Sequence record: PQ306574.1
Length of the DNA stretch: 64,000 bases
Source of the DNA: Escherichia phage vB_EcoM_PTE-Eco09
Reading direction: 5' to 3' (one strand)
Every line of letters begins with the position of its first letter. Within the stretch, counting starts at the first letter, position 1. A program made the translations under genes and the position numbers. Below the pieces are notes generated by a model. It did not search any database and was not told the DNA's origin. It saw nothing but the letters and a program-made list of their open reading frames with translations. Shown in pieces: positions 8,434-35,893 of this stretch.

Positions 8434-8461
8434 TTGACATGCTTATGTGGTAATGTATAAT
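8434..8461 (+). promoter_or_regulatory. early sigma70-like promoter (TTGACA-16-TATAAT) with conserved leader
   Basis: TTGACA 8434-8439, TATAAT 8456-8461, then conserved GCACACATCGAAACA leader and SD. Confidence 0.6.
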
Positions 8462-14918: not shown

Positions 14919-14926
14919 AATAAGTG

Positions 14927-14955
14927 TTGACGCGGGGAGAAATCCCCGCTATAAT
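14927..14955 (+). promoter_or_regulatory. PeSL-type early promoter (stem-loop in spacer)
   Basis: TTGACG 14927-14932, spacer CGGGGAGAAATCCCCGC (palindrome), TATAAT 14950-14955. Confidence 0.6.
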
Positions 14956-14986
14956 ACAACCATCAAAAACAAGTGAGGATTTTATT

Positions 14987-17863: not shown

Positions 17864-17888
17864 GTCGCCCATAGTGGCGACTTTTTTG
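17864..17888 (+). terminator. intrinsic terminator
   Basis: GTCGCC-CATAGT-GGCGAC hairpin followed by TTTTTTG. Confidence 0.7.
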
Positions 17889-17898
17889 TTATTGGGTG

Positions 17899-17927
17899 TT
17901 GACAATCGGATCGGGGTATAGCATAAT
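17899..17927 (+). promoter_or_regulatory. PeSL-type early promoter
   Basis: TTGACA 17899-17904, 17-bp spacer, CATAAT 17922-17927, leader GCACCCATCGAAACGGAGG. Confidence 0.55.
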
Positions 17928-17951
17928 GCACCCATCGAAACGGAGGAACAT

Positions 17952-18170
17952 ATGGAAACAGAAGAACAAGTCATTGCATATTTTCATCGTAAAAAGATGA
18001 AACTTAGAATCGAAAAGCAGTACATCAATCACTACATTGACCGAGTTCACTTAACAAGTACACCTTACCTATTCCGGTTGATAAACCCTAGAAAACGGTG
18101 GGAGAAGTTGGATAGAAACACAAAAATAATTGATAAGCTCACCCAGTGGTGGAATGAATACAACAAGTAA
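17952..18170 (+). CDS. hypothetical protein
   Basis: 72-aa ORF after PeSL promoter. Confidence 0.4.
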   Translation: METEEQVIAYFHRKKMKLRIEKQYINHYIDRVHLTSTPYLFRLINPRKRWEKLDRNTKIIDKLTQWWNEYNK

Positions 18171-18177
18171 AAAGTAG

Positions 18178-18206
18178 TTGACACTGAATAACTGGGGTAG
18201 TAAGAT
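18178..18206 (+). promoter_or_regulatory. PeSL-type early promoter
   Basis: TTGACA 18178-18183, 17-bp spacer, TAAGAT, leader ACTCCCATCGAAACGAAA, SD GGAGAATCAAA. Confidence 0.5.
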
Positions 18207-18239
18207 ACTCCCATCGAAACGAAACAAAGGAGAATCAAA

Positions 18240-18458
18240 ATGAAATTTACTTGCACCGACTCTATCAGCAAGCACTTTGTAGTAGGCGAAGTATACGAAT
18301 CTACTACCATTCGCCAGCGTGACCTGATGGGTCGCCTTTACAATCAGCCAGTATTCATTATTGGCGAAGAATTGTTCTACATTGAAAACCGTCCGTGGGT
18401 TGCTTTCAATAAACGAGGACGCAAGGTAGCAAAATTCGAACTTGTCATTAAAAAGTAG
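18240..18458 (+). CDS. hypothetical protein
   Basis: 72-aa ORF after promoter/leader/SD cassette. Confidence 0.4.
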   Translation: MKFTCTDSISKHFVVGEVYESTTIRQRDLMGRLYNQPVFIIGEELFYIENRPWVAFNKRGRKVAKFELVIKK

Positions 18459-18487
18459 TTGACAGCATGAAACGGGGGTAGTAATAT
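18459..18487 (+). promoter_or_regulatory. PeSL-type early promoter
   Basis: TTGACA 18459-18464, spacer with GGGGGTA...TACCCCC palindrome spanning the -10 (TAATAT), conserved leader. Confidence 0.5.
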
Positions 18488-18525
18488 ACCCCCATCGAAA
18501 CGAAATACACTTTAAGGAGAATCAA

Positions 18526-18675
18526 ATGAACAACTTTGACGCGGTACTGAAAATGGCAATCGAAACTTACGCGGAGATCTCCGGCGAGAAAGTAGAGGAC
18601 ATTATCAAAGAATGTCAGAACTTTGAAAGCCAGACAGCCAAGAATGTTCAAATGTTGATGTTTGCGGTTGCATAA
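18526..18675 (+). CDS. hypothetical small protein
   Basis: 49-aa ORF (MNNFDAVLKMAIETYAEISGEK...) after SD GGAGAATCAA. Confidence 0.3.
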   Translation: MNNFDAVLKMAIETYAEISGEKVEDIIKECQNFESQTAKNVQMLMFAVA

Positions 18676-18683
18676 AAAAGCAG

Positions 18684-18712
18684 TTGACAGCATATCACGG
18701 GAGTAGTAAGAT
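18684..18712 (+). promoter_or_regulatory. PeSL-type early promoter
   Basis: TTGACA 18684-18689, 17-bp spacer, TAAGAT 18707-18712. Confidence 0.5.
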
Positions 18713-18745
18713 ACTCCCATCCCAAAACAACTAAGGAGTATCAAG

Positions 18746-19144
18746 ATGATTAAATTTCAAACTCGCAAAGACGTTCTGGACTTCGTTAAAGTTTTCGGTT
18801 ACGCTGCATTGCAACATGCAATGGACAAAATGACCATCTCCCCAGATCAGACTATGCTGATCCGTATGGTTAAAGCAACCGCCTACAAAAACGACATTAC
18901 CCTCTCAGAAATCAACGACGGTAATACTGTCCGCGAGGTAATTGTTTCTTTCGAATCACCGAAAATTGGAGGTTTTCATACCACGATGTTAGGTGAAATC
19001 ACTGTCACTGTATACGGGCAAGGTGGCGGAGTGTTTACCGTCAAAGAAGCAATGGAAAACGGAACACTGAACAAAGAAAAACTGGAATTTGTCCTGAAAA
19101 TCATCAATGAGCGTAACGAAGCTCGCGATATTCTGGAAAGTTAA
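18746..19144 (+). CDS. hypothetical protein
   Basis: 132-aa ORF after promoter cassette; followed by terminator. Confidence 0.45.
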   Translation: MIKFQTRKDVLDFVKVFGYAALQHAMDKMTISPDQTMLIRMVKATAYKNDITLSEINDGNTVREVIVSFESPKIGGFHTTMLGEITVTVYGQGGGVFTVKEAMENGTLNKEKLEFVLKIINERNEARDILES

Positions 19145-23940: not shown

Positions 23941-24108
23941 TATGAAAACTATGAATGTAAACATCCACGAAATCCATACCGAAGTATTCACCGAAGAAGA
24001 CCAGTTTGGTGTATGGGTAAATCCTCATTCGATTACTATCGATATTCCTAATGACGATTATGATCCGTTCTCTCTGATTAGCGAGATTAGTTTTAATGAC
24101 TTCTGAAA
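23941..24108 (+). CDS. hypothetical small acidic protein
   Basis: 55-aa ORF with SD; overlaps start of next gene. Confidence 0.25.
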
Positions 24109-24575: not shown

Positions 24576-26058
24576 TATCATTAATCAGCTTGCAGCAACA
24601 GACAAAACATCGCTGAAAGAAAAGATTCTGAAAGAATCAGCAAGCAATGAAACGCTGAAAGAATGCTTTTATCTGGCATATTGCAAACAGGTTACGTTTG
24701 GCGTAAAGAAATACGATAAACCGTCTCGCTATTCGTCTGTATTGTCTTTATCCGGTGCATTACAGGTCTTTAAAAATAAACTTGCCACGCGTCAAGTAAC
24801 TGGTAATGCAGCATTACAACTAGTTACCGATACTCTGACTTGCTTGTCAGAGGATGATGCTAAAGTTGCAATGATGGTCCTGAATCGTGATCTGGAATGC
24901 GGCTGTTCCGCTACCACTGCAAACAAGGTATGGAAGAAACTGATCCCCCAGCAACCGTGCCACCTTGCATCGTCATGTTCTGATAAGACTATTGCTAATA
25001 TCAAGTATCCGGCGTATGCACAACTTAAAAGCGATGGCGCTCGTGGTATGGCTGATATTGACGGGGAAACATTAGCAATCTATACCCGCTCAGGTAATAC
25101 CTATCAAGGGCTTGATGATTTGTTTGCGGTTTTAGAGCGTCTACGAGGCCGTGGAATTGTTCTAGATGGCGAATTGGTATATATGCCTACCCTTTCGCAA
25201 ACACCAGCGCAGAACTTCGTTGAAAGCGTTTATGATGGTACTCTGTCATGGATATTTGAAGAAGAGGAAATGCCATTAACGCCAGTAGCGGAAGCAGTGA
25301 AAGAATCCGTTGTTGCAGATCGTCAGACCGGAAATGGTATCCTCAACAAATCACTTAAAGGAACTATTCCAAAAGAAGAAGCCCAATGTATTGTTTACAC
25401 TGTCTGGGATGTTATCGACCGTGATGTGTATTACGGAAACGAGAAAGCAACGAAGCAATATAAAGATCGATTCGAAGAACTAAAACAGATTGTTGAAGAA
25501 CTTAACGATCCTCGTGTTCAGATCATCGAAAACACTGTAGTTAACAATATCGATGAAGCTCGCGAAGTATATCATCGTTATGTCAACATGGGCTTAGAAG
25601 GTATTATCCTTAAAAATTTACATGGTGTATTTGAAGATCGCCGTAGTAAAGATCAGGTTAAATTTAAAGAAGTGATTGACTTCGACGCGGAAATTGTTGA
25701 TGTATATCCGCATAGTAAAGACCCCAATAAGGTAGGCGGTTTTACTGTCCGTAGTGCGTGCGGACGAATGATGACTAACACCGGATCGGGATTAACCGAC
25801 ACTACAACCGAAAAAGGTGATGATGGTATCGAACGTGTAATTCCGTTCGATCGTCGAAATGAACTCGACCGAGAAATGTTATGGGCTGACCGTCATAACC
25901 TGATTGGAAAAGTCATTGAGATGACATGCAACGGGTATATCCGCAGCAAATCACGTAAAGAAGATGAACCGGAGTTCTCTTTATTTCTCCCAATCATCAA
26001 ACGTATTCGCTACGACAAGACCACTGCAAATACAGTAAAAGAGGTATTCGATGTGTGA
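24562..26058 (+). CDS. 30: ATP-dependent DNA ligase
   Basis: Long matches to recalled T4 ligase (LTGNAA, RDLECG, ANKVW..LIP.QP..LASS, PAYAQLKADGAR, GIVLDGELVY, ASNGI.NKSLKGTI.KEEAQC, IENQVVNN.DEA, GLEGIILKN, RSK..FKEVID.D..IV..YPH.KDP.K.GGF, GSGL, LFLPI..R.R.DKT.ANT). Confidence 0.9.
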   Translation: MSILNIINQLAATDKTSLKEKILKESASNETLKECFYLAYCKQVTFGVKKYDKPSRYSSVLSLSGALQVFKNKLATRQVTGNAALQLVTDTLTCLSEDDAKVAMMVLNRDLECGCSATTANKVWKKLIPQQPCHLASSCSDKTIANIKYPAYAQLKSDGARGMADIDGETLAIYTRSGNTYQGLDDLFAVLERLRGRGIVLDGELVYMPTLSQTPAQNFVESVYDGTLSWIFEEEEMPLTPVAEAVKESVVADRQTGNGILNKSLKGTIPKEEAQCIVYTVWDVIDRDVYYGNEKATKQYKDRFEELKQIVEELNDPRVQIIENTVVNNIDEAREVYHRYVNMGLEGIILKNLHGVFEDRRSKDQVKFKEVIDFDAEIVDVYPHSKDPNKVGGFTVRSACGRMMTNTGSGLTDTTTEKGDDGIERVIPFDRRNELDREMLWADRHNLIGKVIEMTCNGYIRSKSRKEDEPEFSLFLPIIKRIRYDKTTANTVKEVFDV

Positions 26059-26527
26059 TAATGAAGGGGCGAAAGCCCCTAAACCTAAAAAATTGTCAAA
26101 GAAAGAGCAACGCCAGATCCTGAAAATGAAATATGGTGGACGTTGTGCCTATTGTGGCGAGGAACTAGGGGATCGCTGGCACGCGGACCACATCAAACCA
26201 GTATTGCGACGCTCAAAGGTAGTCTATGATGAAAATGGACGAATTGCCCGTAATGATGATGGATCATGGAAATATAAGGTTGTAGGAATGCATAAACCGG
26301 AGCATGATATACTTGATAACATGAATCCGGCGTGTGTGCAATGCAATCTTTATAAAAGCTGTATGGGCTTAGAATACTGGCGTAAGTGTATACGCGAGAA
26401 CTTCCAGAAGTACATTCAGCGCAATATGGGATTGCGAGCGGCTAAACGCTTTGGCTTGCTGTCAATCCACGACCAGCCAGTAGAATTTTATTTCGAAAAG
26501 TACGATCGCGAGCATCAAGAAAAATAA
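26051..26527 (+). CDS. HNH endonuclease
   Basis: Cys pairs and HNH core: CAYCG...WHADHIKP...N...CVQCN. Confidence 0.65.
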   Translation: MCDNEGAKAPKPKKLSKKEQRQILKMKYGGRCAYCGEELGDRWHADHIKPVLRRSKVVYDENGRIARNDDGSWKYKVVGMHKPEHDILDNMNPACVQCNLYKSCMGLEYWRKCIRENFQKYIQRNMGLRAAKRFGLLSIHDQPVEFYFEKYDREHQEK

Positions 26528-26539
26528 TTCAAAAAGTTG

Positions 26540-26568
26540 TTGACAGGGGATCGGTGATCCCCTATACT
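26540..26568 (+). promoter_or_regulatory. PeSL-type early promoter
   Basis: TTGACA, spacer GGGGATCGGTGATCCCC (perfect palindrome), TATACT, leader ACACACATCAAAACGAAACA, SD GGAGAATCAAAA. Confidence 0.6.
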
Positions 26569-26613
26569 ACACACATCAAAACGAAACACACTTTCTTAAA
26601 CGGAGAATCAAAA

Positions 26614-26925
26614 ATGAAATACATCGTAACGCTGCCAATGATTGACTTCGACGGAACCATGAACACCCAGAAGACCATGAGCGCGGAGAACCAACTGAAA
26701 AACGCTACCCTGATTCGTGAAGTTCGCAAGGCACTGGCAAAAGAATTTAACACCAAAATTCATTCTGTAACTGGCGAACGTTTCGCGGATCATCTTGATA
26801 TCAACATCAAACCAGTGCGCAACGGTGTTATCTCTGTAACAACCAGCCGCCCACATGCTGACGCTGATAATCTGACCGCTCGCGCAGAAGATGTAATTAT
26901 GACCGTTATCATGGAAAAACTTTAA
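26614..26925 (+). CDS. hypothetical protein
   Basis: 103-aa ORF after PeSL cassette. Confidence 0.45.
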   Translation: MKYIVTLPMIDFDGTMNTQKTMSAENQLKNATLIREVRKALAKEFNTKIHSVTGERFADHLDINIKPVRNGVISVTTSRPHADADNLTARAEDVIMTVIMEKL

Positions 26926-26933
26926 AAAAGTTG

Positions 26934-26962
26934 TTGACAGGGGATCACCGATCCCCTATACT
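26934..26962 (+). promoter_or_regulatory. PeSL-type early promoter
   Basis: TTGACA, spacer GGGGATCACCGATCCCC, TATACT. Confidence 0.6.
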
Positions 26963-26996
26963 ACACACATACCAACGAGATATAGGAGAATCAAAA

Positions 26997-27164
26997 ATGT
27001 TCCAGACTAAAGCAGAATGCGAAGCATACATTGTAGCAAACCACGGCGAAGATTATCTGAAATTTGACATTGTAGTAGCACAGAAGATCACCGGAATGGT
27101 TGCAAAATATCTGGGTGTTAAAGAAGGTTACTATCCGAGCAACGCACCGGAAATCAACAAATAA
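26997..27164 (+). CDS. hypothetical small protein (duplicated family, copy 1)
   Basis: MFQTKAECEAYIVANHGEDYLKFDIVVAQKITGMVAKYLGVKEGYYPSNAPEINK; near-identical copy at 30281. Confidence 0.5.
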   Translation: MFQTKAECEAYIVANHGEDYLKFDIVVAQKITGMVAKYLGVKEGYYPSNAPEINK

Positions 27165-27167
27165 TAG

Positions 27168-27196
27168 TTGACAATGATTAAAGGGAGTAGTAAGAT
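27168..27196 (+). promoter_or_regulatory. PeSL-type early promoter
   Basis: TTGACA 27168-27173, 17-bp spacer, TAAGAT, leader ACTCCCATCAAGACAACAAAC, SD GGAGAATCAAA. Confidence 0.5.
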
Positions 27197-27228
27197 ACTC
27201 CCATCAAGACAACAAACGGAGAATCAAA

Positions 27229-27408
27229 ATGAAAGCTATCGAAGTTCAGAAGTACATGGAAATCATCGTTGAAGGTAAAGCACATACAGTATTGACTACC
27301 CACGTAGGATATGATAAAAATGTGCATATGCTGGTAGACAATATCGGCTGGATGAAGTTTAATCCTAACGAGAACGTACAAGCTCAAGAAATGACCATCC
27401 CTTTCTAA
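27229..27408 (+). CDS. hypothetical small protein
   Basis: 59-aa ORF (MKAIEVQKYMEIIVEGKAHTVLTTHVGYDKNVHMLVDNIGWMKF...) after cassette. Confidence 0.4.
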   Translation: MKAIEVQKYMEIIVEGKAHTVLTTHVGYDKNVHMLVDNIGWMKFNPNENVQAQEMTIPF

Positions 27409-27420
27409 GAGGAATATATT

Positions 27421-27699
27421 ATGATGCGAATTACTGCAACGCTGGATAAGACACACAAAGAAAGATTTTTCGGTATGATCTTAAAAACGCCGATTTTCGA
27501 TAATTACCTTTATGTTGACTATGAAGGTCACATTAGCTATAAATGTAAAAATGATATTCGTGATTCCTTTGGTGATAAATCACAATCTGATATTCATGAC
27601 CACTGGTGGAACCATGACGAACCTTTACGAGTTATCGCAGTTGATGTAAAAACAACAAAAGAAGCTGATAAGGTAGTGAATGATTATGAGCAAATTTAA
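27421..27699 (+). CDS. hypothetical protein, HxxHW-motif family member 1
   Basis: 92 aa; shares YLYVDYEG...IxY, HDHWW and VIAVDV blocks with ORFs at 28123, 28446 and 29147. Confidence 0.45.
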   Translation: MMRITATLDKTHKERFFGMILKTPIFDNYLYVDYEGHISYKCKNDIRDSFGDKSQSDIHDHWWNHDEPLRVIAVDVKTTKEADKVVNDYEQI

Positions 27700-27943
27700 A
27701 GAATACAAAGCATATCAACAGATCCTGCGAGTATACGCACCAGAGTTCGCCGAAAAGATGATGGAAGATGCATCAAAATGCCCGTCCTTTTCTGGAAACA
27801 AAAACCATTATTCTACTCGTATTGTATCATGGAAAGAAACATGCTACACTCAACAGTGGATAAACGTTTTCTCAAAAACAATTGGTTGGAATGGTGTTAA
27901 TTATGGGTATTCAGAGTCAATTCAAAGATTATCGAGTGTATAA
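27680..27943 (+). CDS. hypothetical protein (FKxY...ADKMMxEASxCxSF family, copy 1)
   Basis: 87 aa; paralogous to following ORF. Confidence 0.4.
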   Translation: MIMSKFKEYKAYQQILRVYAPEFAEKMMEDASKCPSFSGNKNHYSTRIVSWKETCYTQQWINVFSKTIGWNGVNYGYSESIQRLSSV

Positions 27944-28121
27944 AGAAATCTGTGCTGTATTTGATGAGAAAACAGCAGATAAAATGATGAAAGAAGCGTC
28001 ACAATGTTCATCTTTTGTTGATAACAAAGATTTAAGAGTAAATGAGATCGTGTGCTGGAGCGACACGAAACATGAAATTGTATGGCGTACCGTGTACTAT
28101 AGCCGCGACCGAGGATTATAA
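27903..28121 (+). CDS. hypothetical protein (FKxY...ADKMMxEASxCxSF family, copy 2)
   Basis: 72 aa from ATG 27903; MGIQSQFKDYRVYKEICAVFDEKTADKMMKEASQCSSF parallels previous ORF. Confidence 0.4.
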   Translation: MGIQSQFKDYRVYKEICAVFDEKTADKMMKEASQCSSFVDNKDLRVNEIVCWSDTKHEIVWRTVYYSRDRGL

Positions 28122-28122
28122 A

Positions 28123-28431
28123 ATGAAATTAACTAAAAAGATTTTCCCAGAATTGCGTAACTGTCTGTTACTGGTTACTGAATATAAGCCGTATACGATC
28201 TACTTGTACGTTGATGAAAATCTGAAAATCCGTTACTATGATTATACGTCTCCAGTGATGCAATCATTTTCTCACTCGATAGCAAATAACTGTATGAATC
28301 ACAATCATTGGGTATCAAAAACGGATGACGATGCGTCAGAAGTTGTAGTGGTTGCATGGAATCTATCACCAGCGGAAGCAGATCAAGCACGCATTCAGCA
28401 TTACGCGAAAAACAACGGTCAAACTTTATAA
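28123..28431 (+). CDS. hypothetical protein, HxxHW-motif family member 2
   Basis: YTIYLYVDENLKIRYYDY...NHNHW...VVVVAWNL; SD GAGGA. Confidence 0.45.
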   Translation: MKLTKKIFPELRNCLLLVTEYKPYTIYLYVDENLKIRYYDYTSPVMQSFSHSIANNCMNHNHWVSKTDDDASEVVVVAWNLSPAEADQARIQHYAKNNGQTL

Positions 28432-28445
28432 GTGAGGAAAATATT

Positions 28446-28724
28446 ATGTTCAAAGTAGGTGATAAGTTTATTCTTAGTCGTGATATTCTCCCTAATCTGA
28501 AAGGTTGTATCATCAATCCTAGTAAAAATTCATGGTTTTATCTGTTTATCGACGACAAACTGAATGTACGCGCAGAATATAAAGAAGGTCTTCGTACTGG
28601 TCTAGGTTTCTTTCACGATCATGATCATAGCCATTGGCTAAACGGTGGATTCGAAGCAACGGTGCTAGCGGTTGATGTGACTTACACGAACATCATAGAA
28701 AAATATCAAAAAATTATTTTATAA
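28446..28724 (+). CDS. hypothetical protein, HxxHW-motif family member 3
   Basis: WFYLFIDDKLNVRAEY...HDHDHSHW...VLAVDVT; SD GTGAGGA. Confidence 0.45.
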   Translation: MFKVGDKFILSRDILPNLKGCIINPSKNSWFYLFIDDKLNVRAEYKEGLRTGLGFFHDHDHSHWLNGGFEATVLAVDVTYTNIIEKYQKIIL

Positions 28725-28730
28725 AAAGTA

Positions 28731-28759
28731 TTGACACCGGATCGGGGATATAGCATAAT
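28731..28759 (+). promoter_or_regulatory. PeSL-type early promoter
   Basis: TTGACA, spacer CCGGATCGGGGATATAG, CATAAT with GGGGATAT/ATATCCCC palindrome spanning -10. Confidence 0.55.
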
Positions 28760-28805
28760 ATCCCCATCGAAACGAGATACACTTTCTAACTAGGAGAATC
28801 AAATT

Positions 28806-29093
28806 ATGGCATACATTACTATCACTCTGAAAGTTAACAAATTCGCTCACGCTGCACACGAAACCGATAATGCAATCCGTAACAACAAGTTCGCACGTCT
28901 GGTACGCGATGCGGTAGCTAAAGAGTTCAACTTCAAATTTGCAGATGGTAAAGTTATCACTAAATGGACTCATGACGGCGAAACTAAAGTAGAACTTGCT
29001 GATAACTTCGCAAATCAGGAATATGCACACCGTCGCATTAATGAAATTATCAGCGATGAACTCTACTACGGTGTACAGGAAGGACTGTTTTAA
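28806..29093 (+). CDS. hypothetical protein
   Basis: 95-aa ORF after PeSL cassette; followed by terminator. Confidence 0.45.
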   Translation: MAYITITLKVNKFAHAAHETDNAIRNNKFARLVRDAVAKEFNFKFADGKVITKWTHDGETKVELADNFANQEYAHRRINEIISDELYYGVQEGLF

Positions 29094-29098
29094 TATAC

Positions 29099-29124
29099 GG
29101 GGCGTTAAGCCCCACCCCTTTTCA
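29099..29124 (+). terminator. intrinsic terminator
   Basis: GGGGC-GTTAA-GCCCC hairpin then CCCTTTTC. Confidence 0.55.
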
Positions 29125-29146
29125 TCCAACTATTGAGGATAATACT

Positions 29147-29455
29147 ATGAAAGATAATATCTTTGAATTTACCCGCGAAAATCTCCCAATGTTCCGAAAG
29201 TCTCTGCTTAAACTAGAGAACAGTAATTATGATGTATATTTTTACATCACCGAAGACCTAGAGATCCTTTACGCAGATTATCCAGGTCCGATCCGTACCT
29301 TCGAAGAAGCATCGCAGTATAAAAATGTTCACGGTCATGAGCACTGGTTACGAGAAAACCCAGGTCGCAAGAAAGCACGCGTTAAAGTGATTGCGATTGA
29401 CGTAACACCAGCATACGCCGACCGGATTGCACTGAATGATTATTTGTCTAAATGA
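29147..29455 (+). CDS. hypothetical protein, HxxHW-motif family member 4
   Basis: YDVYFYITEDLEILYADY...HGHEHW...VIAIDVT. Confidence 0.45.
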   Translation: MKDNIFEFTRENLPMFRKSLLKLENSNYDVYFYITEDLEILYADYPGPIRTFEEASQYKNVHGHEHWLRENPGRKKARVKVIAIDVTPAYADRIALNDYLSK

Positions 29456-29462
29456 TTTTATT

Positions 29463-29487
29463 AGCCGACCTTAGTGTCGGCTTTTTT
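29463..29487 (+). terminator. intrinsic terminator
   Basis: AGCCGAC-CTTAGT-GTCGGCT hairpin followed by TTTTTTA. Confidence 0.7.
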
Positions 29488-29512
29488 ATTGCATAAAATT
29501 TTAAAAAAGTTG

Positions 29513-29541
29513 TTGACACCAGATCACGCCTATAGCATAAT
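29513..29541 (+). promoter_or_regulatory. PeSL-type early promoter
   Basis: TTGACA 29513-29518, 17-bp spacer, CATAAT 29536-29541, conserved leader and SD. Confidence 0.55.
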
Positions 29542-29581
29542 ACACCCATCGAAACGAGATACCACTTAGGAGAATCAAACA

Positions 29582-29851
29582 ATGGCGCTGACTAAAACCA
29601 CTACCAACTTTGCAAAACGTCACGGCTTCGACCTTGAAATCAATAGCTTTAACGATTACACCCTTCTGTGTGTATATGAAATCGAAAATGATTGCGAGTG
29701 GATGTTCAGCTATCGCGTAAACGAAGACGGATCTTTCACTTGGAACGGAAATATCTATCTTGCACAGGAAGTAAAAGAAGAACTACCGGCGACTATCAAA
29801 GATGAGAAGCATTTACGTCAAGTTTTAAAATTTATTTCTGAAAATATCTAA
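29582..29851 (+). CDS. hypothetical protein
   Basis: 89-aa ORF after cassette. Confidence 0.45.
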   Translation: MALTKTTTNFAKRHGFDLEINSFNDYTLLCVYEIENDCEWMFSYRVNEDGSFTWNGNIYLAQEVKEELPATIKDEKHLRQVLKFISENI

Positions 29852-29859
29852 AAAAGTTG

Positions 29860-29888
29860 TTGACACCAAAGTAAGAACATAGCATAAT
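29860..29888 (+). promoter_or_regulatory. PeSL-type early promoter
   Basis: TTGACA 29860-29865, 17-bp spacer, CATAAT 29883-29888. Confidence 0.55.
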
Positions 29889-29921
29889 ACACACATACCG
29901 AAACGAACTGGAGAATCAAAA

Positions 29922-30203
29922 ATGAAATTCATCAAAGCAACCGAAATCCTGAAAAACAAAGAAGCATACATCGGAAACATCGTTGGTATGAACATTCGCG
30001 GCGCTGGTAGCCAGTGGACCAAACTGGTTGATGTTAAAGCTAAAGGCGATAAAATTGAGTTCACTGTAAAAATGCTTACTCATAACGCACATATGGGTAT
30101 CAAGACAAAAACGATGGCAGCAGATAAAAGCATCAACTATCAGGATCTGGGCGATTGGCTGAACTGGTGCAAAATACACAACATCGAAACTAATCACGAA
30201 TAA
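29922..30203 (+). CDS. hypothetical protein
   Basis: 93-aa ORF after cassette. Confidence 0.45.
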   Translation: MKFIKATEILKNKEAYIGNIVGMNIRGAGSQWTKLVDVKAKGDKIEFTVKMLTHNAHMGIKTKTMAADKSINYQDLGDWLNWCKIHNIETNHE

Positions 30204-30217
30204 TTTTAAAAAAGTTG

Positions 30218-30246
30218 TTGACGGGGATCGGGAGATCCCCTATAAT
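30218..30246 (+). promoter_or_regulatory. PeSL-type early promoter
   Basis: TTGACG, spacer GGGATCGGGAGATCCCC, TATAAT. Confidence 0.6.
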
Positions 30247-30280
30247 GCACACATACCAACGAGATATAGGAGAATCAAAA

Positions 30281-30448
30281 ATGTTCCAGACTAAAGCAGA
30301 ATGCGAAGCATATATCATTGAAACCCACGGCGAAGATTATCTGAAATTTGACATTGTAGTAGCACAGAAGATTGTAGGGATGGTTGCGAAATACCTCGGA
30401 GTTAAAGAAGGTTACTATCCTAGCAACGCACCAGAAATTAACAAATAA
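30281..30448 (+). CDS. hypothetical small protein (duplicated family, copy 2)
   Basis: MFQTKAECEAYIIETHGEDYLKFDIVVAQKIVGMVAKYLGVKEGYYPSNAPEINK; differs from 26997 copy at a few residues. Confidence 0.5.
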   Translation: MFQTKAECEAYIIETHGEDYLKFDIVVAQKIVGMVAKYLGVKEGYYPSNAPEINK

Positions 30449-30462
30449 TTTTATAAAAAGTG

Positions 30463-30491
30463 TTGACAGGGGAGGATAACTCCCCTACAAT
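30463..30491 (+). promoter_or_regulatory. PeSL-type early promoter
   Basis: TTGACA, spacer GGGGAGGATAACTCCCC, TACAAT. Confidence 0.55.
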
Positions 30492-30531
30492 ACAACCATC
30501 AAGACGAGATACCACTTAGGAGAATCAAACA

Positions 30532-30783
30532 ATGGCTAACATCGAAACCGCAAAGAAAATCGCTAAAGACCTGAACGTTAAAGGCTTCCGTAAACTGAAA
30601 TTACAGCGTGTACGCTACACCATCGGCAAACAGTGCTCTTTCATGAGCGAAGAAGTTGCTAACAGCCTGATTGATAACCTGATTGCGGCTGGCTGGGAAG
30701 TTGCGGATCTGAAAACTTGCCGCGAACTGGCTAAAAAAGGTCTTTTAGATTCTGTTACTATCAAACCAATGGGGGCAGCGTGA
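30532..30783 (+). CDS. hypothetical protein (first gene of coupled operon)
   Basis: 83-aa ORF after cassette. Confidence 0.45.
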   Translation: MANIETAKKIAKDLNVKGFRKLKLQRVRYTIGKQCSFMSEEVANSLIDNLIAAGWEVADLKTCRELAKKGLLDSVTIKPMGAA

Positions 30784-31025
30784 AAAGAAAATTAATTAAA
30801 CGCAATAAGGAATTTCTTAATAACTGCATTAAGGCCGCTAATGGTTGGCCTTTGTGCCTCTTCCTTTATGATTGGTATTCTAAACAATCAGTTGAGGAAG
30901 CACGACACTATAAGAAGATCAGAAAAGAATCACACACAAAACAAGGTCGCATTAACGGACTTTACTTAATGTGGCACGGTAAAGAACCGACTAAAATCTG
31001 TGCTGGGTTAAAGGGTCGTATATGA
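30780..31025 (+). CDS. hypothetical basic protein
   Basis: 81-aa ORF, GTG start overlapping upstream stop. Confidence 0.35.
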   Translation: MKRKLIKRNKEFLNNCIKAANGWPLCLFLYDWYSKQSVEEARHYKKIRKESHTKQGRINGLYLMWHGKEPTKICAGLKGRI

Positions 31026-31738
31026 AACAAAAATTAATATTCTGCAACTTTGACGGATCGGGAATAATGGGGCTAGAATGGGCTAAAGCAGGTCATAAGG
31101 TAGTCTGCTTTAATGCGGATGACGCCGACCACGGTACATACAAAAAGTATAATACCAGATTTGAACATCCAAACATTACCTATGTAAACACATGGATTGA
31201 TTTGAATTGGCTGGAAAGAGCAATGGACCTTGAATGGGGGAAACCGGATATTATCTTTGCATTCCCACCGTGCACCAATTTAGCTGTTAGTGGCGCTGCG
31301 CACTTTGAACGAAAGAAACTAGAACAAGGACCATTGATTCAAGTTCATGATGTAAGGGCAGCTAAAATAACCGCTTATTTGGGTGAATGGCTAGGAGTTC
31401 CCTACATGATAGAGAATCCTGTAAGCGTTATCTCTAGTATGTGGCGTAAGCCTGATTACATGTTCCATCCGTGGGAATATGGCGGTTATTTGCCGGAAGA
31501 TGATAAACATCCTACTTTTCCTGAGTATATCGCCGCCCGTGATATGTACCCGAAAAAGACTTGCTTATGGACCGGACAAGGCTTTATAATGCCAGAAAAG
31601 AAACCGTTGCAGATTAATAAAGGGTACAGTAAACAGCATTCTAAGCTAGGCGGGAAAGGAACGAAAACAAAGACTATCAGGTCACTTACCCCGCGAGGAT
31701 TCGCAAAGGCAGTATTTGAAGCCAATAAGGATCTATGA
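31022..31738 (+). CDS. short DNA (cytosine-5)-methyltransferase-like protein
   Basis: Motif I-like FCNFDGSG, motif IV-like FPPCTNLAVSGA (PC catalytic dipeptide, T instead of Q), motif VI-like IENPVS; only 238 aa, no obvious target-recognition domain. Confidence 0.5.
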   Translation: MKQKLIFCNFDGSGIMGLEWAKAGHKVVCFNADDADHGTYKKYNTRFEHPNITYVNTWIDLNWLERAMDLEWGKPDIIFAFPPCTNLAVSGAAHFERKKLEQGPLIQVHDVRAAKITAYLGEWLGVPYMIENPVSVISSMWRKPDYMFHPWEYGGYLPEDDKHPTFPEYIAARDMYPKKTCLWTGQGFIMPEKKPLQINKGYSKQHSKLGGKGTKTKTIRSLTPRGFAKAVFEANKDL

Positions 31739-32067
31739 TGAGATTGTTTAAGTATTCGCTAACGTCAAATTACGATAAACAAGGTCATTGCATCCGTTGC
31801 CCTGATTGTCATAGCCATAACATCGAAAGCAAGATCACCGATCATATTGATGGACTTTGGTCGCCAGCAAGTGAAATAGAATACTATTGCGCTGATTGTG
31901 GAATTGTAGTAGCATATTGGGCATACGGATCATATGATCCATACTTCCAGATGGGAGAGCGTTCAATCCCTGCGCTTATCTGGAGAATTAAGAACAATAT
32001 CCGGCATTCATGGGATGAGTTCTTAAAAGATATTGATTTACGTGATGACCCATTCAGGAGACTATAA
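31735..32067 (+). CDS. zinc-ribbon protein
   Basis: CIRCPDCHSHN...CADCG Cys4 arrangement; start overlaps upstream stop (ATGA). Confidence 0.4.
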   Translation: MMRLFKYSLTSNYDKQGHCIRCPDCHSHNIESKITDHIDGLWSPASEIEYYCADCGIVVAYWAYGSYDPYFQMGERSIPALIWRIKNNIRHSWDEFLKDIDLRDDPFRRL

Positions 32068-32068
32068 C

Positions 32069-32587
32069 ATGAACCGTTTAACGCCTAAACGCCGTTACTA
32101 TACCAATACTAAAAACTTTGTCATCTCTGTTTATGATGCATGGTTAGAAGATGGCTATATCAACATGAACCCAGATTATCAGCGTCCTTTAGTATGGGAC
32201 ACCGAAAACAAACGTATGTTTATTGAAAACCTGATTAATGATTTTCCGGTTGGTGCTATCGCAATGGCTAAGATTGATGATGGCTCTCGCTATGAGATCG
32301 AAATCGTGGACGGTAAACAGCGTTTAAACGCAATATTCTCCTTTATGAAGGATGAGTTTAGCATTGCTTGTAATGATGATTCTATGTTGTATTACAGTGA
32401 TTTTACGCCAGCAGAAAAGCGACGTTTCCGAAATCTCGGACTACCCGCGATCATGATGGAAGAGAGCACACGAGAAGACCGATTAGAGTATTTCTACAAA
32501 ACAAACTTTTTCGGTGTACCTCAATCGGAAGAACATCGCCAGCATGTGATTGCATTATTGCAAGATGAACAATTAAAAAATAACTAA
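32069..32587 (+). CDS. DUF262 / ParB-like nucleotide-binding domain protein
   Basis: NPDYQRPLVW and VDGKQRL (DGQQR-type) motifs typical of DUF262/ParB-Srx fold; ATG 1 nt after upstream stop. Confidence 0.5.
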   Translation: MNRLTPKRRYYTNTKNFVISVYDAWLEDGYINMNPDYQRPLVWDTENKRMFIENLINDFPVGAIAMAKIDDGSRYEIEIVDGKQRLNAIFSFMKDEFSIACNDDSMLYYSDFTPAEKRRFRNLGLPAIMMEESTREDRLEYFYKTNFFGVPQSEEHRQHVIALLQDEQLKNN

Positions 32588-32594
32588 AAAGTTG

Positions 32595-32623
32595 TTGACA
32601 GGGGATCGGTGATCCCCTATAAT
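32595..32623 (+). promoter_or_regulatory. PeSL-type early promoter
   Basis: TTGACA, spacer GGGGATCGGTGATCCCC (identical to 26546 copy), TATAAT. Confidence 0.6.
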
Positions 32624-32659
32624 GCACACATACCGAAACGAACTACTAAGGAGTATCAA

Positions 32660-32872
32660 ATGGCTAACATCGAAATCATCATTACCGACGTAACTTATGA
32701 CCGCATTAACGAAATCGGTACTGCATTACTGGAAGATGGAACAACTCGTACCATCAACTACGCAGAATACGTTGAAATGCGTGGTTGTATTAAACGAGTA
32801 GGAAAATATATCCTGATTGAAAAAGACTATTCAGGATACACCTTAGAGCAATTGCTTGATGGTGCATTATAA
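32660..32872 (+). CDS. hypothetical small protein
   Basis: 70-aa ORF (MANIEIIITDVTYDRINEIG...) after cassette; followed by terminator. Confidence 0.4.
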   Translation: MANIEIIITDVTYDRINEIGTALLEDGTTRTINYAEYVEMRGCIKRVGKYILIEKDYSGYTLEQLLDGAL

Positions 32873-32878
32873 TAAAAA

Positions 32879-32900
32879 GGGGCGTTAAGCCCCGTTTTCA
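32879..32900 (+). terminator. intrinsic terminator
   Basis: GGGGC-GTTAA-GCCCC hairpin followed by GTTTTCA. Confidence 0.6.
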
Positions 32901-32939
32901 TAAATATAGGTTTATAGGTTATCAACTAGAGGATATAAA

Positions 32940-34991
32940 ATGTTTAACTTAGAAATCGACGATCTAATGATTGAATCTTTCGAGAAATGGCTGTTGACGG
33001 AAGAGGAAGAAAACTTTGGCAGTATTGCTCCTGTACAGTGCTTAAAGCCTAAGCAGAATCCTAAACAGCTTTTTGCAGTACAGACACGCGATAAAGATGT
33101 GATTGTCCGTCTTTGCAACTTCACCAACAAAACACCTAAAATCATTCGTATGGGTGACAAGACCGCACATGTTGTACTGTGCGAAATGAACAAAAGCGGT
33201 CGTATTGTACAGCTTAAAAATGGTCTAGGCGATAACCCGATTGCAGTTATGTCAAGTGCTTTTGATGTGGTTATGGAAACAGCCCGTAAAGCGCAATTAG
33301 ACGCTGTTATGTTCCGTTTTAACGTATCCCGCATGAAAGGTAAGACCGAACTGGTTAAGCGCGTTATAGAGCGTTTGGTGCGTCGTACACCGAAGTTTGA
33401 AGTATTCCAGCAGGAAGTAATGACCAGCAAAAAGATCGCTTTAGTTGTTGTCAAGCGTCGCGGTATGGCGATTGATAAGATTAAAGGGATTAAACTTGAT
33501 GATTCCTTGTTCACTAAAGTAGAAAGTGATTTAGGTGATCGCTGGGTATCTAAGGCTACTGGTGAATCTCTGACTAAAGATGAGGCATATGCGGCTAGTC
33601 TTGTGTCAGAAGAAGAACGAAACGCGGAAGCGGAACAACGCGTAGCGGCTAAATCTCGTTTGACTAAAGAAGAAATGCTGAAAACTCAAGCGACCTATAA
33701 CAGCGACTATGTGAATCATCCAGAAAAAATTAATCTTAAACCGGAAGAAGATATCACCGAAGCCGAACCTAAGAAACAGTTTAATACTCTGATTGATCGT
33801 CAAGCCTTAGAACGTTCAACCGCCCGTTCTCTGAATGACTGGACAAGTGATATTATCACTCGCTATGGTTTCATGCGTACTATTTTTGAAAGCGAAGCCG
33901 ATGCAAAATACGCAGTAAGCGAACTGGTAAAAGTTCAGGATCAATATGATCCGTTGTCTGCGGAAGTTATCGCAGCATCAATCAAACGCTTAAAAGAAAT
34001 CATGAGCGAGGAAGTATTCGAAAACAAGATCACCGCCCGGGCAATGGATCGAGTAGACCAGTCTATGCCAGCAGATGTAAAAGCTGAAATGCTGCGTAGT
34101 CATATCACCCAGATTAAAACCGATGCCCTACGTAATGTTGCGTCCGGTATGTTTGAAGCAATTGCTAGCAACATGGGTGAAATGATGGCAGATATTGATC
34201 TTGATCTGCCAGGCGCGGAAGGTTTTGTGTTGAGCGAATATGCCGATGCAGCATACATCAATATGAACAACTTCCTAACTGATCGTAAGCTGGAAGAGTT
34301 TGAAGGCATCGCAGATCCAGAAGAATTGGTCAAGATGTGCGATGCACTGGATAATGCCTTCTCCAACTATGGCGTTAAACTTGATCCGGGTACTATTCTG
34401 TATCGTGGTATGGACTTCCGGTCGCAAATGTGGGAAACTGCACGTAAGCAAAAAGCGTTTTACTTTAAAAACTATGTGAGCACTTCCCTTGCACCTAACA
34501 TTTTTGGCGGCTGGAATGCAAACGTGGCTAGTGCCGTTGCTGGTGTTGATTCTATGGCTGGCTCTCGCGGTGAAGGTGGCGCTAATGTTGCTTTCTCCAT
34601 TGCTGGCGCGGAAAACATCCCTGTATTGCCAGTAGGTAACAAAGCATTTGCTTACAAAGAATGCGAGATTTTACTTCCTCGCGGTGTTGTGTTATCCTTT
34701 GATACGGTAACTCGTGCTACGGCATCGACGGATTCACAAGAAACTTATTACATTGAGGCACATATTATGAACAAAAATGAACTGGCAGCATTACAAGAAT
34801 CTGGCGAGATGATCGCGGACGGTGATGCATTCATCCGTGAAGGTGTTATTAAACCTGCTTCTGACCTGTCTTTCTCCAGCTTTATTACCGAAGCTAAAAC
34901 CGAACGTAAGAAAGCAGATAAGGCAACTCTACGTCAGCTTATCGCTGATCTGGTATCTGTAGACGCAATGCCAGATAAATTTAAAATGTAA
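32940..34991 (+). CDS. alt: ADP-ribosyltransferase Alt-like
   Basis: 683 aa (T4 Alt about 682); C-terminal ART triad R (LYRGMDFR), STS (YVSTSL), ExE (KECEILLPRG); position next to baseplate gene 54. Confidence 0.8.
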   Translation: MFNLEIDDLMIESFEKWLLTEEEENFGSIAPVQCLKPKQNPKQLFAVQTRDKDVIVRLCNFTNKTPKIIRMGDKTAHVVLCEMNKSGRIVQLKNGLGDNPIAVMSSAFDVVMETARKAQLDAVMFRFNVSRMKGKTELVKRVIERLVRRTPKFEVFQQEVMTSKKIALVVVKRRGMAIDKIKGIKLDDSLFTKVESDLGDRWVSKATGESLTKDEAYAASLVSEEERNAEAEQRVAAKSRLTKEEMLKTQATYNSDYVNHPEKINLKPEEDITEAEPKKQFNTLIDRQALERSTARSLNDWTSDIITRYGFMRTIFESEADAKYAVSELVKVQDQYDPLSAEVIAASIKRLKEIMSEEVFENKITARAMDRVDQSMPADVKAEMLRSHITQIKTDALRNVASGMFEAIASNMGEMMADIDLDLPGAEGFVLSEYADAAYINMNNFLTDRKLEEFEGIADPEELVKMCDALDNAFSNYGVKLDPGTILYRGMDFRSQMWETARKQKAFYFKNYVSTSLAPNIFGGWNANVASAVAGVDSMAGSRGEGGANVAFSIAGAENIPVLPVGNKAFAYKECEILLPRGVVLSFDTVTRATASTDSQETYYIEAHIMNKNELAALQESGEMIADGDAFIREGVIKPASDLSFSSFITEAKTERKKADKATLRQLIADLVSVDAMPDKFKM

Positions 34992-35007
34992 TTTTAAGAA
35001 ATAATGG

Positions 35008-35036
35008 TTGACTCAAACGGGGACTAGTTTTATACT
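35008..35036 (+). promoter_or_regulatory. PeSL-type promoter doubling as terminator hairpin for alt
   Basis: TTGACT, spacer CAAACGGGGACTAGTTT, TATACT; stem AAACGGGGACTAGT/ACTAGCCCCGTTT followed by TCTG. Confidence 0.5.
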
Positions 35037-35068
35037 AGCCCCGTTTTCTGTTATATGGGAGGCTTAAA

Positions 35069-35893
35069 ATGTTCAAGAAATTACAGGATTTTCGTATTTC
35101 AGAAGAATCACGCGAATCAATGATGGAACGTATGGATAATTACATCGAAACATATGACATTGAGGGGATTAATGGTTACATGATCACTGAGATGATCAGT
35201 GATCAGATTAACTTTGATGATTATGTGAAGGTTATCCGCTTCCTTGAGCGCGAGACACAAGATTATGGATTTGTCAAGAAAATCATTAATGTGATGTATG
35301 AAGTACACTCCGAAGAATTTGGAGATAATGTATTCAAACATTACAAACATAACAACATAACCCCAGCAGAATATAATGCAATCTGTGATTATGTGTCTGA
35401 ACAATACGAATGGGTAAATGGTGCTCTCTTAGGGGAAGAAGACATGACCGATGAGATATCAGAGATTGTCGATTTGATGGATTGCGTCATGGATAAAACC
35501 GAAAAGTTAAACGGTACTCTTTATCGAGGTCAACATCTTGACATTCAGACAATAGAGCGTATCATTGAAGATAAGGAGTTTACCTTTAAAAACTTTGTAT
35601 CTACCAGCATGACACCGATCATATTTGGAGGATGGCTATCAAACAGCACTAGCCTTTATTGTGAGAATCGATATGAATCAATGACCGGAAAGATGCAACA
35701 TTCTTGTAATGTATCATGGGTAATTGACGTAAAAGATCATAAAGGTTTTGTTGTTGGGTCAATTGCATGGAACCCTTGCGAATGTGAAGTAATTTTACCG
35801 CGAGGGACTTGCGTCAAGGTAAACGACGTAGTAGAATCTTTCGGCGATGAGAATCGTAGACAATTTACAATTTTCGGTGAGGTGACTAAATGA
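35069..35893 (+). CDS. second ADP-ribosyltransferase (Alt/Mod-like paralog)
   Basis: 274 aa; R (LYRGQHL), STS (FVSTSM), ExE (CECEVILPRG); catalytic region similar to C-terminus of upstream Alt. Confidence 0.7.
   Translation: MFKKLQDFRISEESRESMMERMDNYIETYDIEGINGYMITEMISDQINFDDYVKVIRFLERETQDYGFVKKIINVMYEVHSEEFGDNVFKHYKHNNITPAEYNAICDYVSEQYEWVNGALLGEEDMTDEISEIVDLMDCVMDKTEKLNGTLYRGQHLDIQTIERIIEDKEFTFKNFVSTSMTPIIFGGWLSNSTSLYCENRYESMTGKMQHSCNVSWVIDVKDHKGFVVGSIAWNPCECEVILPRGTCVKVNDVVESFGDENRRQFTIFGEVTK

Follow-up and report, generated by a model that had tools for sequence, protein, structure and literature searches.

The interval 26540–32623 of Escherichia phage vB_EcoM_PTE-Eco09 (PQ306574.1; positions refer to the whole 64,000-nucleotide stretch analysed, here called the window) is very probably the hyperplastic region HPR3 of a Krischvirus, punctuated by nine PeSL (promoter-early stem-loop) cassettes that would serve as early promoters, as hairpins attenuating read-through and as dispersed homology for recombination. 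Publications of 2010 and 2014 already cover PeSLs at this locus and in this phage group, together with the promoter and terminator functions and modular shuffling, and the finding is a known one.

All 63 phage records that match the window are of the Krischvirus type (RB49, phi1, JSE, GEC-3S and others; best identity 99.2%), and RB43- or RB16-type relatives are absent from these 63. On sequence comparison the window belongs to Krischvirus, i.e. to an RB49/phi1-type T4-like coliphage. From ligase to alt the genes run in the same order as in Phi1 and RB49 (ligase-HNH-ORF210...ORF185-alt), which identifies the interval, by sequence, as the ligase-to-alt hyperplastic region HPR3 (gene 30 to alt; ORF212 to ORF185), orthologous to the RB49/phi1 locus. 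An HNH endonuclease gene adjoins the region. PeSLs were defined and tested experimentally in RB49/phi1 (Arbiol et al. 2010, PMC2839356) at the locus orthologous to this one, so the PeSL architecture recognised in the original prediction holds. Its attribution to RB43-group phages was rejected: the PeSL description concerns RB49 and phi1, no RB43/RB16-type record matches the window, and RB43 appears once in PMC2839356, for 'PeSL-like sequences' near gene 43, with no mention in Comeau et al. 2014 (PMC4122927).

Nine cassettes lie within the interval, with -35 elements starting at 26540, 26934, 27168, 28731, 29513, 29860, 30218, 30463 and 32595 (Table 1). At least 15 had been predicted there. That number requires the six copies predicted outside the interval to be counted too; all six are present (-35 at 14927, 17899, 18178, 18459, 18684 and 35008). 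Weaker relatives of the cassette occur at 8434, 9695 and 10078. The repetition is real and far above chance. The window contains 29 instances of TTGACA-N15-19-TANNNT (5.5 expected), 13 of the Shine-Dalgarno (SD) motif GGAGAATCAAA with at most one mismatch (1.7 expected; 11 of the 13 inside cassettes), and 14 of AAAAAGTTGTTGAC with at most two mismatches (1.2 expected). An nhmmer profile recovered 12 strong copies (E-values 1e-13 to 5e-21) and five weaker ones, all on the + strand.

Table 1. Cassettes and related features of the window.
Feature	Coordinates	Strand	Details
PeSL before ORF210 homologue	26515..26616	+	Equivalent to phi1 PeSL212/210, same as Phi1 locus; TTGACA 26540; spacer hairpin GGGGATCGGTGATCCCC, -13.8 kcal/mol; -10 TATACT; SD GGAGAATCAAA; ATG 26614
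Recombinant PeSL at ORF209-206 deletion junction	26909..26999	+	Spacer hairpin GGGGATCACCGATCCCC; ATG 26997
Gene-conversion patch inside ORF205	27047..27071	+	Six consecutive ORF191-type diagnostic bases
PeSL heading six-gene block ORF204 to ORF199 (27229-28724)	27143..27231	+	Hairpin GGGAGTAGTAAGATACTCCC across -10 TAAGAT, -12.2 kcal/mol
PeSL heading ORF198 and ORF197	28706..28808	+	Hairpin GGGGATATAGCATAATATCCCC across -10 CATAAT, -14.3 kcal/mol
Canonical terminator, then hairpin-less cassette heading ORF194	29463..29584	+	Terminator 29463-29482 plus T6 run; -35 29513; -10 CATAAT
Promoter cassette without stem-loop, heading ORF193	29836..29924	+	-35 29860; -10 CATAAT; -2.0 kcal/mol, z = +0.24
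PeSL before ORF191 (phi1-type PeSL193/191)	30193..30283	+	-35 TTGACG; spacer hairpin GGGGATCGGGAGATCCCC; -10 TATAAT
PeSL with strongest fold of the nine	30438..30534	+	Spacer hairpin GGGGAGGATAACTCCCC, -19.4 kcal/mol, z = -5.8; heads five-gene operon ORF190 to ORF187, including a DNA methyltransferase and a GmrSD_N-domain protein
Chimeric PeSL heading ORF185, at ORF186 deletion	32570..32662	+	
Outlying PeSL	14902..14986	+	TTGACG 14927; spacer hairpin GCGGGGAGAAATCCCCGC, -19.0 kcal/mol; -10 TATAAT
Second cluster, four cassettes	17874..18748	+	-35 17899, 18178, 18459, 18684; 18459 and 18684 with clear hairpins across -10, 17899 (z +0.05) and 18178 (z -0.41) with marginal ones
Divergent cassette behind alt	34983..35071	+	TTGACT 35008; long hairpin spanning -10, -20.6 kcal/mol, then TTTTCTGTT

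The architecture of the cassettes was observed directly. An A-rich upstream tract is followed by TTGAC(A/G), a 17-bp spacer (9/9), a -10 hexamer, a loose leader, GGAG(A/T)ATCAA and ATG; the last two elements are present in every cassette. The preceding gene has its stop codon 3-30 bp upstream, within the AT-rich tract, as the PeSL definition requires, and the tract AAAAAGTTGTTGAC upstream of the -35 element is exact in six cassettes. The two hexamers match TTGACA/TATAAT at 10 to 12 of 12 positions in all nine. When 12 kb were scanned for promoters, eight of the nine sites scoring 11 or more of 12 were cassettes (cassette 27168 scores 10). In the alignment of the cassettes, the hexamers and the SD are the most invariant columns. 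The predicted conserved leader CAYMCATCGAAACGA is recognisable in eight of nine cassettes at up to three mismatches, but exact only once (29543). Similarly, a small ORF had been predicted behind each cassette: the first gene is indeed small (55-103 aa), but 19 genes are served by the nine, and three cassettes head operons of 2 to 6 genes, with a 238-aa methyltransferase among the products. The downstream genes are ORFans without a Pfam match, in PHROG families of unknown function.

Each cassette combines a predicted early promoter close to the sigma-70 consensus with an A-rich upstream tract, a short conserved 5' leader and a strong GGAG ribosome-binding site. Given this combination, host RNA polymerase would start an independent early transcript at each one. 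The GEC-3S record has a promoter annotated at every homologous cassette, and in RB49 the 5' ends mapped for early transcripts are in agreement with the early promoter consensus (PMC1524935). Promoter and terminator activity was assayed with lacZ on PeSL206/205, 193/192 and 211/210 (PMC2839356). By homology, promoter use and termination are presumed in this phage also, and expression timing and the termination efficiency of each copy are likewise presumed; promoter activity, terminator activity and mini-circle formation are carried over from the literature on orthologous PeSLs (PMC2839356).

The hairpins are more variable in location than the original prediction, which placed a GC-rich palindrome in the spacer, had suggested. 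Five of nine cassettes (26540, 26934, 30218, 30463, 32595) agree with it, but in two (27168, 28731) the hairpin lies across the -10 hexamer, and 29513 and 29860 have none of their own. Five hairpin positions have been described for PeSLs (PMC2839356), whose stem-loop may sit between the two hexamers, overlap one of them, or immediately precede or follow them. Cassette 29513 is preceded at about 30 bp by a separate terminator hairpin of different sequence, which fits the published 'upstream' class by position only. In seven of the nine cassettes the folding energy is -12 to -19 kcal/mol and the z-score between -1.9 and -5.8. The stem sequences vary while pairing is kept (GGGGATC/GATCCCC, GGGGAG/CTCCCC, GGGAGTA/TACTCCC, GCGGGGA/TCCCCGC). 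A scan for canonical intrinsic terminators reported none of the seven in-promoter hairpins: the T-run is absent, and TATAAT, TATACT, or ATC and A-rich sequence follows instead. The only canonical-looking terminators in 24000-36000 are 29463-29482 and 32879-32893.

Because the hairpin lies upstream of the presumed start of its own cassette, it would be transcribed only by polymerases arriving from upstream. It may therefore attenuate or terminate read-through, with the -10 hexamer acting as a weak U/A-rich tail, and it is probably also a 3'-end cap for the upstream mRNA. That the palindromes instead work as double-stranded DNA, either as operators for a sequence-specific protein or as Dam-methylation switches (via GATC) tuning the promoters, is highly improbable. 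Cassette spacers have about 7 times the GATC density of the whole window, and Arbiol et al. (PMC2839356) speculate that a GGGG...CCCC-binding protein may exist. However, the GATC copies are not independent, as all are members of one stem family. Window-wide GATC is neither depleted nor unusual (observed/expected 1.0), and the strongest hairpins (30463, 14927) and all hairpins across the -10 lack it. The maintenance of pairing despite changes in stem sequence and position fits a structural role better than a sequence-specific one, and a PeSL hairpin on its own was sufficient to terminate transcription of lacZ in vivo (PMC2839356).

Besides directing transcription, the cassettes would act in recombination. 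Because some 50-100 bp are common between cassettes, homologous recombination of the phage would use them as dispersed homology, and exchange between them would delete, insert, duplicate and convert small gene modules. The interval is the shortest version among 13 compared, lacking ORF211, ORF209-206, ORF195/196, ORF192 and ORF186. Loss of ORF209-206 was a 1.1-kb deletion with the crossover inside an approximately 50-bp identical tract common to two PeSLs (zone ~26925-26974). The resulting PeSL is composite, its upstream flank coming from PeSL210/209 and its leader and SD from PeSL206/205, and this ORF210-to-ORF205 junction is carried by none of 58 database relatives. In the ORF186 deletion, also present in PHB13 and KFS-EC, the crossover lies in the 14-bp leader tract CATACCGAAACGAA. 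The chimeric PeSL at 32595 took its promoter and spacer hairpin from PeSL187/186 and its distal leader and SD (GGAGTATCAA) from PeSL186/185, and the promoter of ORF185 changed from the hairpin-across-the-10 type to the hairpin-in-spacer type.

Comparison with 12 relatives located eight indel loci. Six of these touch a cassette, three of them with a PeSL at both ends, in agreement with the predicted modular gene shuffling; two JSE-specific changes are not cassette-bounded. For the ORF211 and ORF192 indels a recognisable PeSL is found at one end only. At the upstream edge of the PeSL at 30193..30283 ORF192 is inserted in relatives, and in JSE a different ORF. In RB49 the terminator-plus-PeSL unit (29463..29584 in the window) occurs twice, flanking ORF195/196. 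Of the 50 differences from FL15, a relative of 99% identity, 39 are concentrated at or beside PeSLs, and the hairpin loop type at orthologous positions varies from relative to relative. The ORF205 and ORF191 modules, 3.3 kb apart, are connected by two ectopic conversion patches, as confirmed with 18 diagnostic columns that are fixed in 12 relatives. One lies inside ORF205 (Table 1), and in the other the leader of the PeSL at 30193..30283 and the first ORF191 codons are converted to the ORF205 type. Like the orthology with the published locus, the cassette-bounded indels, the chimeric cassettes and the conversion patches were observed directly.

Co-localisation of indels and cassettes does not by itself prove that cassettes drive recombination, since viable indels need intergenic DNA and this is mostly cassette. 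The cassettes could be strong early promoters only, alike through functional convergence under selection for expression and with no special recombination role, the indels falling there for want of other intergenic DNA. The most invariant columns are indeed promoter hexamers and SD, the intergenic DNA of the region is almost wholly cassettes, and two indels are not cassette-bounded. Nevertheless, this explanation is very unlikely. The likeness extends to non-promoter positions (the upstream AAAAAGTTG tract, the leader and the SD spacer), and non-adjacent cassettes have exact tracts of 31-36 bp in common. The junctions have 42-97 bp of overlapping homology and are clean chimeras (two in the window), the conversion patches reach into paralogous coding sequence, and sequenced circular excision products have crossovers inside PeSLs (PMC2839356).

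These circles, mini-circles for ORF192 and ORF210 that consist of an ORF plus its cassette, raise another alternative, in which the cassettes are sites of a dedicated site-specific recombinase rather than passive homology for general recombination. Arbiol et al. (PMC2839356) draw an analogy to integrons and point out a likeness between RB49 ORF211 and an integron ORF, and the gene next to the region encodes an HNH endonuclease. Yet the crossover positions vary from event to event: at the A-rich edge, in a promoter-spanning 50-bp zone or in the 14-bp leader tract here; in the loop, between -10 and SD, and between stem and AT-rich tract in PMC2839356. The window itself lacks ORF211, and no integrase-type protein or domain was found among the scanned products of the region. 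An integron-like site-specific system was rejected on the variable crossover zones and the lack of such a domain in the scanned products, and has scarcely any probability.

General recombination at passive homology remains the preferred reading. It is unlikely, though conceivable, that the hairpins are in addition active hot spots through their DNA structure. Hairpin or cruciform extrusion would then be followed by template switching or by structure-specific cleavage, e.g. by an endonuclease VII-type enzyme. Four observations would fit this. On identical arms, the spacer loops GGT and ACC are each the exact reverse complement of the other, suggestive of a loop flip; orthologous cassettes of relatives differ in hairpin loop type; one published crossover lies in the loop; and the differences from the 99%-identical relative accumulate at the cassettes. 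If true, PeSLs would be self-renewing, concertedly evolving recombination sites.

The PeSL region is real but ordinary for the RB49/phi1 group, with nothing new in kind. The new local detail (the ORF209-206 and ORF186 deletions, the chimeric PeSL, the conversion patches and the six of eight indel loci that touch a cassette) supports the published recombination model. The window is a clean natural example and offers useful supporting cases for a comparative study of Krischvirus genome plasticity, leaving the picture unchanged.

The closest known system is the set of HPR3 PeSLs of RB49/phi1 (PMC2839356), with the same genus, locus, ORFan context and cassette-bounded indels and the same anatomy: A-rich tract, TTGACA-N17-TATAAT, a G(n)-loop-C(n) hairpin at one of several places, then SD and ATG. 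Only the arrangement differs (the missing ORFs, the ORF210-ORF205 junction and the two ORF205/ORF191 conversion patches). The PeSLs of T4/PST and KVP40/nt-1 (PMC4122927) are likewise composite promoter-terminator motifs in hyperplastic regions and associated with indels that distinguish close relatives, but their consensus is TTTACW or TTGYVH with AT-richer stems, whereas the window has the RB49-type near-perfect sigma-70 promoter and G/C stems. PeSL modules resemble integron gene cassettes and phage 'morons' in being small accessory genes that form units with regulatory signals of their own, and integron cassettes also have circular excision intermediates. Unlike integrons, PeSLs have no fixed crossover point, and no integrase was found among the scanned products of the region; unlike in morons, the regulatory sequences of PeSLs themselves provide the homology for movement.

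The repeated intergenic unit seen on inspection of 26400-32800 lies on the + strand and runs in the order A-rich tract (AAAAAGTTG in many copies), TTGACA, 17-bp spacer, -10 hexamer, leader of ~25-45 nt, GGAG(A/T)ATCAA and ATG. One cassette there carries TTGACG and the others TTGACA, while the -10 hexamers comprise TATAAT, TATACT, TACAAT, CATAAT and TAAGAT. These elements are far above chance frequency: TTGACA-N15-19-TANNNT was counted 29 times in the window (5.5 expected), GGAGAATCAAA with at most one mismatch 13 times, 11 of them within cassettes (1.7 expected), and AAAAAGTTGTTGAC with at most two mismatches 14 times (1.2 expected). A search with an nhmmer profile of clear cassette copies yielded 12 strong matches, with E from 1e-13 to 5e-21, besides five weaker ones; every match is on the + strand. 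A MAFFT multiple alignment of 18 copies displays conserved hexamers, leader CAT and Shine-Dalgarno sequence (SD): TTGAC and the A/T positions of the -10 are invariant, and the A-rich tract, the CAT and the GAG of the SD nearly so. The repeated cassettes are real. In the GEC-3S record every homologous cassette is annotated as a promoter, with both -35 and -10 signals marked. No Rfam family matched anywhere in the window at gathering thresholds, so the cassettes do not belong to a curated RNA family.

The original prediction placed at least 15 cassettes in 26540-32623. There are actually nine, serving 19 genes, and 15 is reached only by adding six copies listed elsewhere, which are also genuine. 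Three cassettes head operons: 27168 (six genes), 28731 (two) and 30463 (five). A palindrome in the spacer, predicted for the unit as a whole, is present in five of the nine; two have it across the -10 instead, and two have none of their own. The proposed leader consensus occurs exactly once, but eight of the nine match it with at most three mismatches.

Cassettes, indel loci and other features (cassettes are named by the start of the -35 hexamer; PeSL, promoter-early stem-loop)
Feature	Position	Occurrence	Detail
Cassettes (+), hairpin in spacer	26540, 26934, 30218, 30463, 32595		-13.8 to -19.4 kcal/mol (folding)
Cassettes (+), hairpin across -10 hexamer	27168, 28731		-12.2, -14.3 kcal/mol (folding)
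Cassettes (+), without hairpin of own	29513, 29860		-0.8, -2.0 kcal/mol (folding)
Outlying copies	14927, 17899, 18178, 18459, 18684, 35008
Weaker cassette relatives	8434, 9695, 10078
Canonical terminator	29463-29482		T6 run; just before cassette 29513
GGGGATC-GGT-GATCCCC / GGGGATC-ACC-GATCCCC	26546-26562, 26940-26956, 32601-32617		spacer hairpins
GGGGCGTTAAGCCCC hairpin	32879-32893		T-runs on both strands; between ORF185 and alt
Similar GGGGCGTTAAGCCCC hairpin	29099-29113		between ORF198 and ORF197
TGATCACTGA-GATGA-TCAGTGATCA	35181-35205		palindrome, 10-bp stem; within 274-aa ORF after cassette 35008
DNA ligase gene	24556-26058
HNH endonuclease gene	26051-26527		adjoins first cassette
ORF205	26997-27164		ORF191 base at six consecutive sites, 27047-27071
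ORF191	30281-30448		ORF205 base at first two sites, 30287 and 30300
Tandem paralogues, 55-57 aa	15154-15494		downstream of cassette 14927
ORF211, ~350 bp		missing in the window, Phi1, FL38, SFHK24 (GEC-3S locus stops short)	A-rich edge of cassette 26540
ORF210		missing in SFHK24, Whisky	PeSL both ends (SFHK24), right end only (Whisky)
ORF209-206, 1.1-1.4 kb		in 12/12 relatives, missing only in the window	PeSL both ends
ORF195/196		RB49 only	duplicated terminator-plus-PeSL unit on both flanks
ORF192 (different ORF in JSE)		some relatives	upstream edge, cassette 30218
ORF186		missing in the window, PHB13, KFS-EC	PeSL both ends
Replacement	27905-28689	JSE only	not cassette-bounded
ORF189.1 loss		JSE only	not cassette-bounded

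The inferred transcription start of each such promoter is downstream of its hairpin, which would therefore act only on transcripts coming from upstream, with the -10 hexamer providing just a short U/A-rich tail behind it. Classification of the promoter-embedded hairpins as canonical terminators was rejected: they lack a T-run, and a scan for canonical terminators did not report them. In view of the lacZ results in the literature the weaker wording "attenuator/terminator" seems apt, and their strength is presumed from that published for a hairpin with closely similar arms. In that work the PeSL211/210 hairpin (between ORF211 and ORF210) reduced read-through to much the same extent as rrnB T1, and PeSL206/205 gave strong lacZ expression (PMC2839356).

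The stem sequences are few and related, and vary among copies with pairing preserved. GATC is 7-fold enriched in the cassette spacers and not unusual window-wide; it was discarded as an independent Dam-related signal, since the enrichment reflects one related stem family. Variable stems with pairing kept, together with this single origin of GATC, speak for a structural role rather than for a sequence-specific operator. The loop type (GGT, ACC, GGGA, ACG) varies among relatives at orthologous cassettes. The GGT and ACC spacer hairpins of the window are exact reverse complements, as if the loop had been flipped, and the same difference separates RB49 from other relatives at the orthologous PeSL206/205. 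Either a template switch across the hairpin or conversion by a different copy could produce it. Outside the cassettes, the hairpin between ORF185 and alt looks like a bidirectional terminator.

Megablast against phage records returned 63 matches, all of Krischvirus type and including RB49, Phi1, JSE, GEC-3S and KFS-EC, the best with 99.2% identity over 92% of the query; the attribution to the RB43 group was therefore wrong. Compared with annotated Phi1 and RB49, the gene order is gene 30 (DNA ligase), ORF212 (HNH), ORF210, ORF205 ... ORF185, alt, which identifies the locus as the ligase-to-alt hyperplastic region.

The ligase-to-alt interval was compared by BLAST with 12 relatives (GEC-3S, FL37, PHB13, FL15, Phi1, RB49, G2494, FL38, SFHK24, JSE, Whisky, KFS-EC), and eight indel or replacement loci were found. 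The ORF210-to-ORF205 junction of the window is found in none of 58 matching records (query 26750-27150), all of which break at 26994-26999. The HNH gene and the 3' end of the ligase gene have 8 bp in common. The ORF211 indel, which 8/12 relatives carry, falls exactly between the HNH gene and the first cassette.

Since the region is gene-dense and its intergenic DNA is almost all cassette, selection alone would put viable indel junctions there. The case for recombination at the cassettes is made by the overlapping homology, the chimeras and the conversion patches. Base-level inspection revealed two clean chimeras. Cassette 26934 joins the PeSL210/209 upstream flank to the PeSL206/205 leader, with the crossover somewhere within the common tract AAAAAAGTTGTTGACAGGGGATCACCGATCCCCTATACTACACACATACC. 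Cassette 32595 has the PeSL187/186 promoter and spacer hairpin, continuing via CATACCGAAACGAA into the PeSL186/185 distal leader and SD; the ORF185 promoter has thus exchanged a hairpin across the -10 for one in the spacer. Crossover positions differ from event to event; integron-like site-specific recombination was rejected on this ground, and general homologous recombination is favoured. The modular shuffling originally predicted is borne out against the 12 relatives by cassette-bounded indels and the two chimeras, with the exception of the two JSE changes.

ORF205 and ORF191 encode 93% identical proteins and have homologous cassettes. Of the 50 differences from FL15 (99.1% identity over 5.7 kb), 39 are clustered within or next to PeSLs and the two ORFs. 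At 18 alignment columns fixed and different between the two ORFs in all 12 relatives, the ORF191-type patch within ORF205 has ORF205-type sites on either side, and the leader of ORF191 is ORF205-type. Such conversion patches and the loop variation fit frequent exchange among cassettes, as the published model expects.

The small genes between cassettes at 26614-29455 fall into families of paralogues: phrog_7474 includes both ORF210 and ORF198, ORF203, 200, 199 and 197 constitute one family, and ORF202 and 201 another. The region therefore grew through duplication as well as acquisition. The tandem paralogues after cassette 14927 share 38% identity (E = 3e-14). The 30463 operon (31022-32587) encodes a 238-aa protein annotated in relatives as DNA methyltransferase or Dcm, for which no Pfam match was obtained here, and a 172-aa protein with a stand-alone GmrSD_N/DUF262 domain (Pfam E = 5.9e-20); unusually, this ParB-like nuclease domain lacks the C-terminal partner that normally accompanies it. 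Across 1-64000 GGCC is strongly depleted (19 observed, ~67 expected, ratio 0.29) and other 4-bp palindromes have ratios of 0.7-1.05; avoidance of a restriction system specific for GGCC is a possible cause.

The PeSL interpretation was right, as the anatomy and locus are those of Arbiol et al. 2010 (PMC2839356), who defined PeSLs in phi1 and RB49. They described five classes of hairpin position and ~52 copies in each genome, most of which precede ORFans in hyperplastic regions, assigned RB49 ORFan192 at this same locus to "HPR3", and found ORF192 and ORF210 excised as circles with crossovers within flanking PeSLs (PMC2839356). In the window ORF210 lies between the near-identical PeSLs 26540 and 26934. 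According to Nolan et al. (PMC1524935), the RB49 early promoter consensus agrees with the mapped 5' ends of early transcripts (Desplats 2002). Comeau et al. 2014 (PMC4122927) applied the concept also to T4/PST and KVP40/nt-1, which they contrasted with the RB49 type, where the stems are G(n)-loop-C(n) and the sigma-70 consensus is near-perfect. The 2010 paper names RB43 a single time, in connection with PeSL-like sequences near gene 43 (PMC2839356), and the 2014 paper never does (PMC4122927); the concept was thus correct and the phage group mistaken. PeSLs at this very locus were already known, and the rearrangements specific to the window are tidy new cases of a known mechanism.
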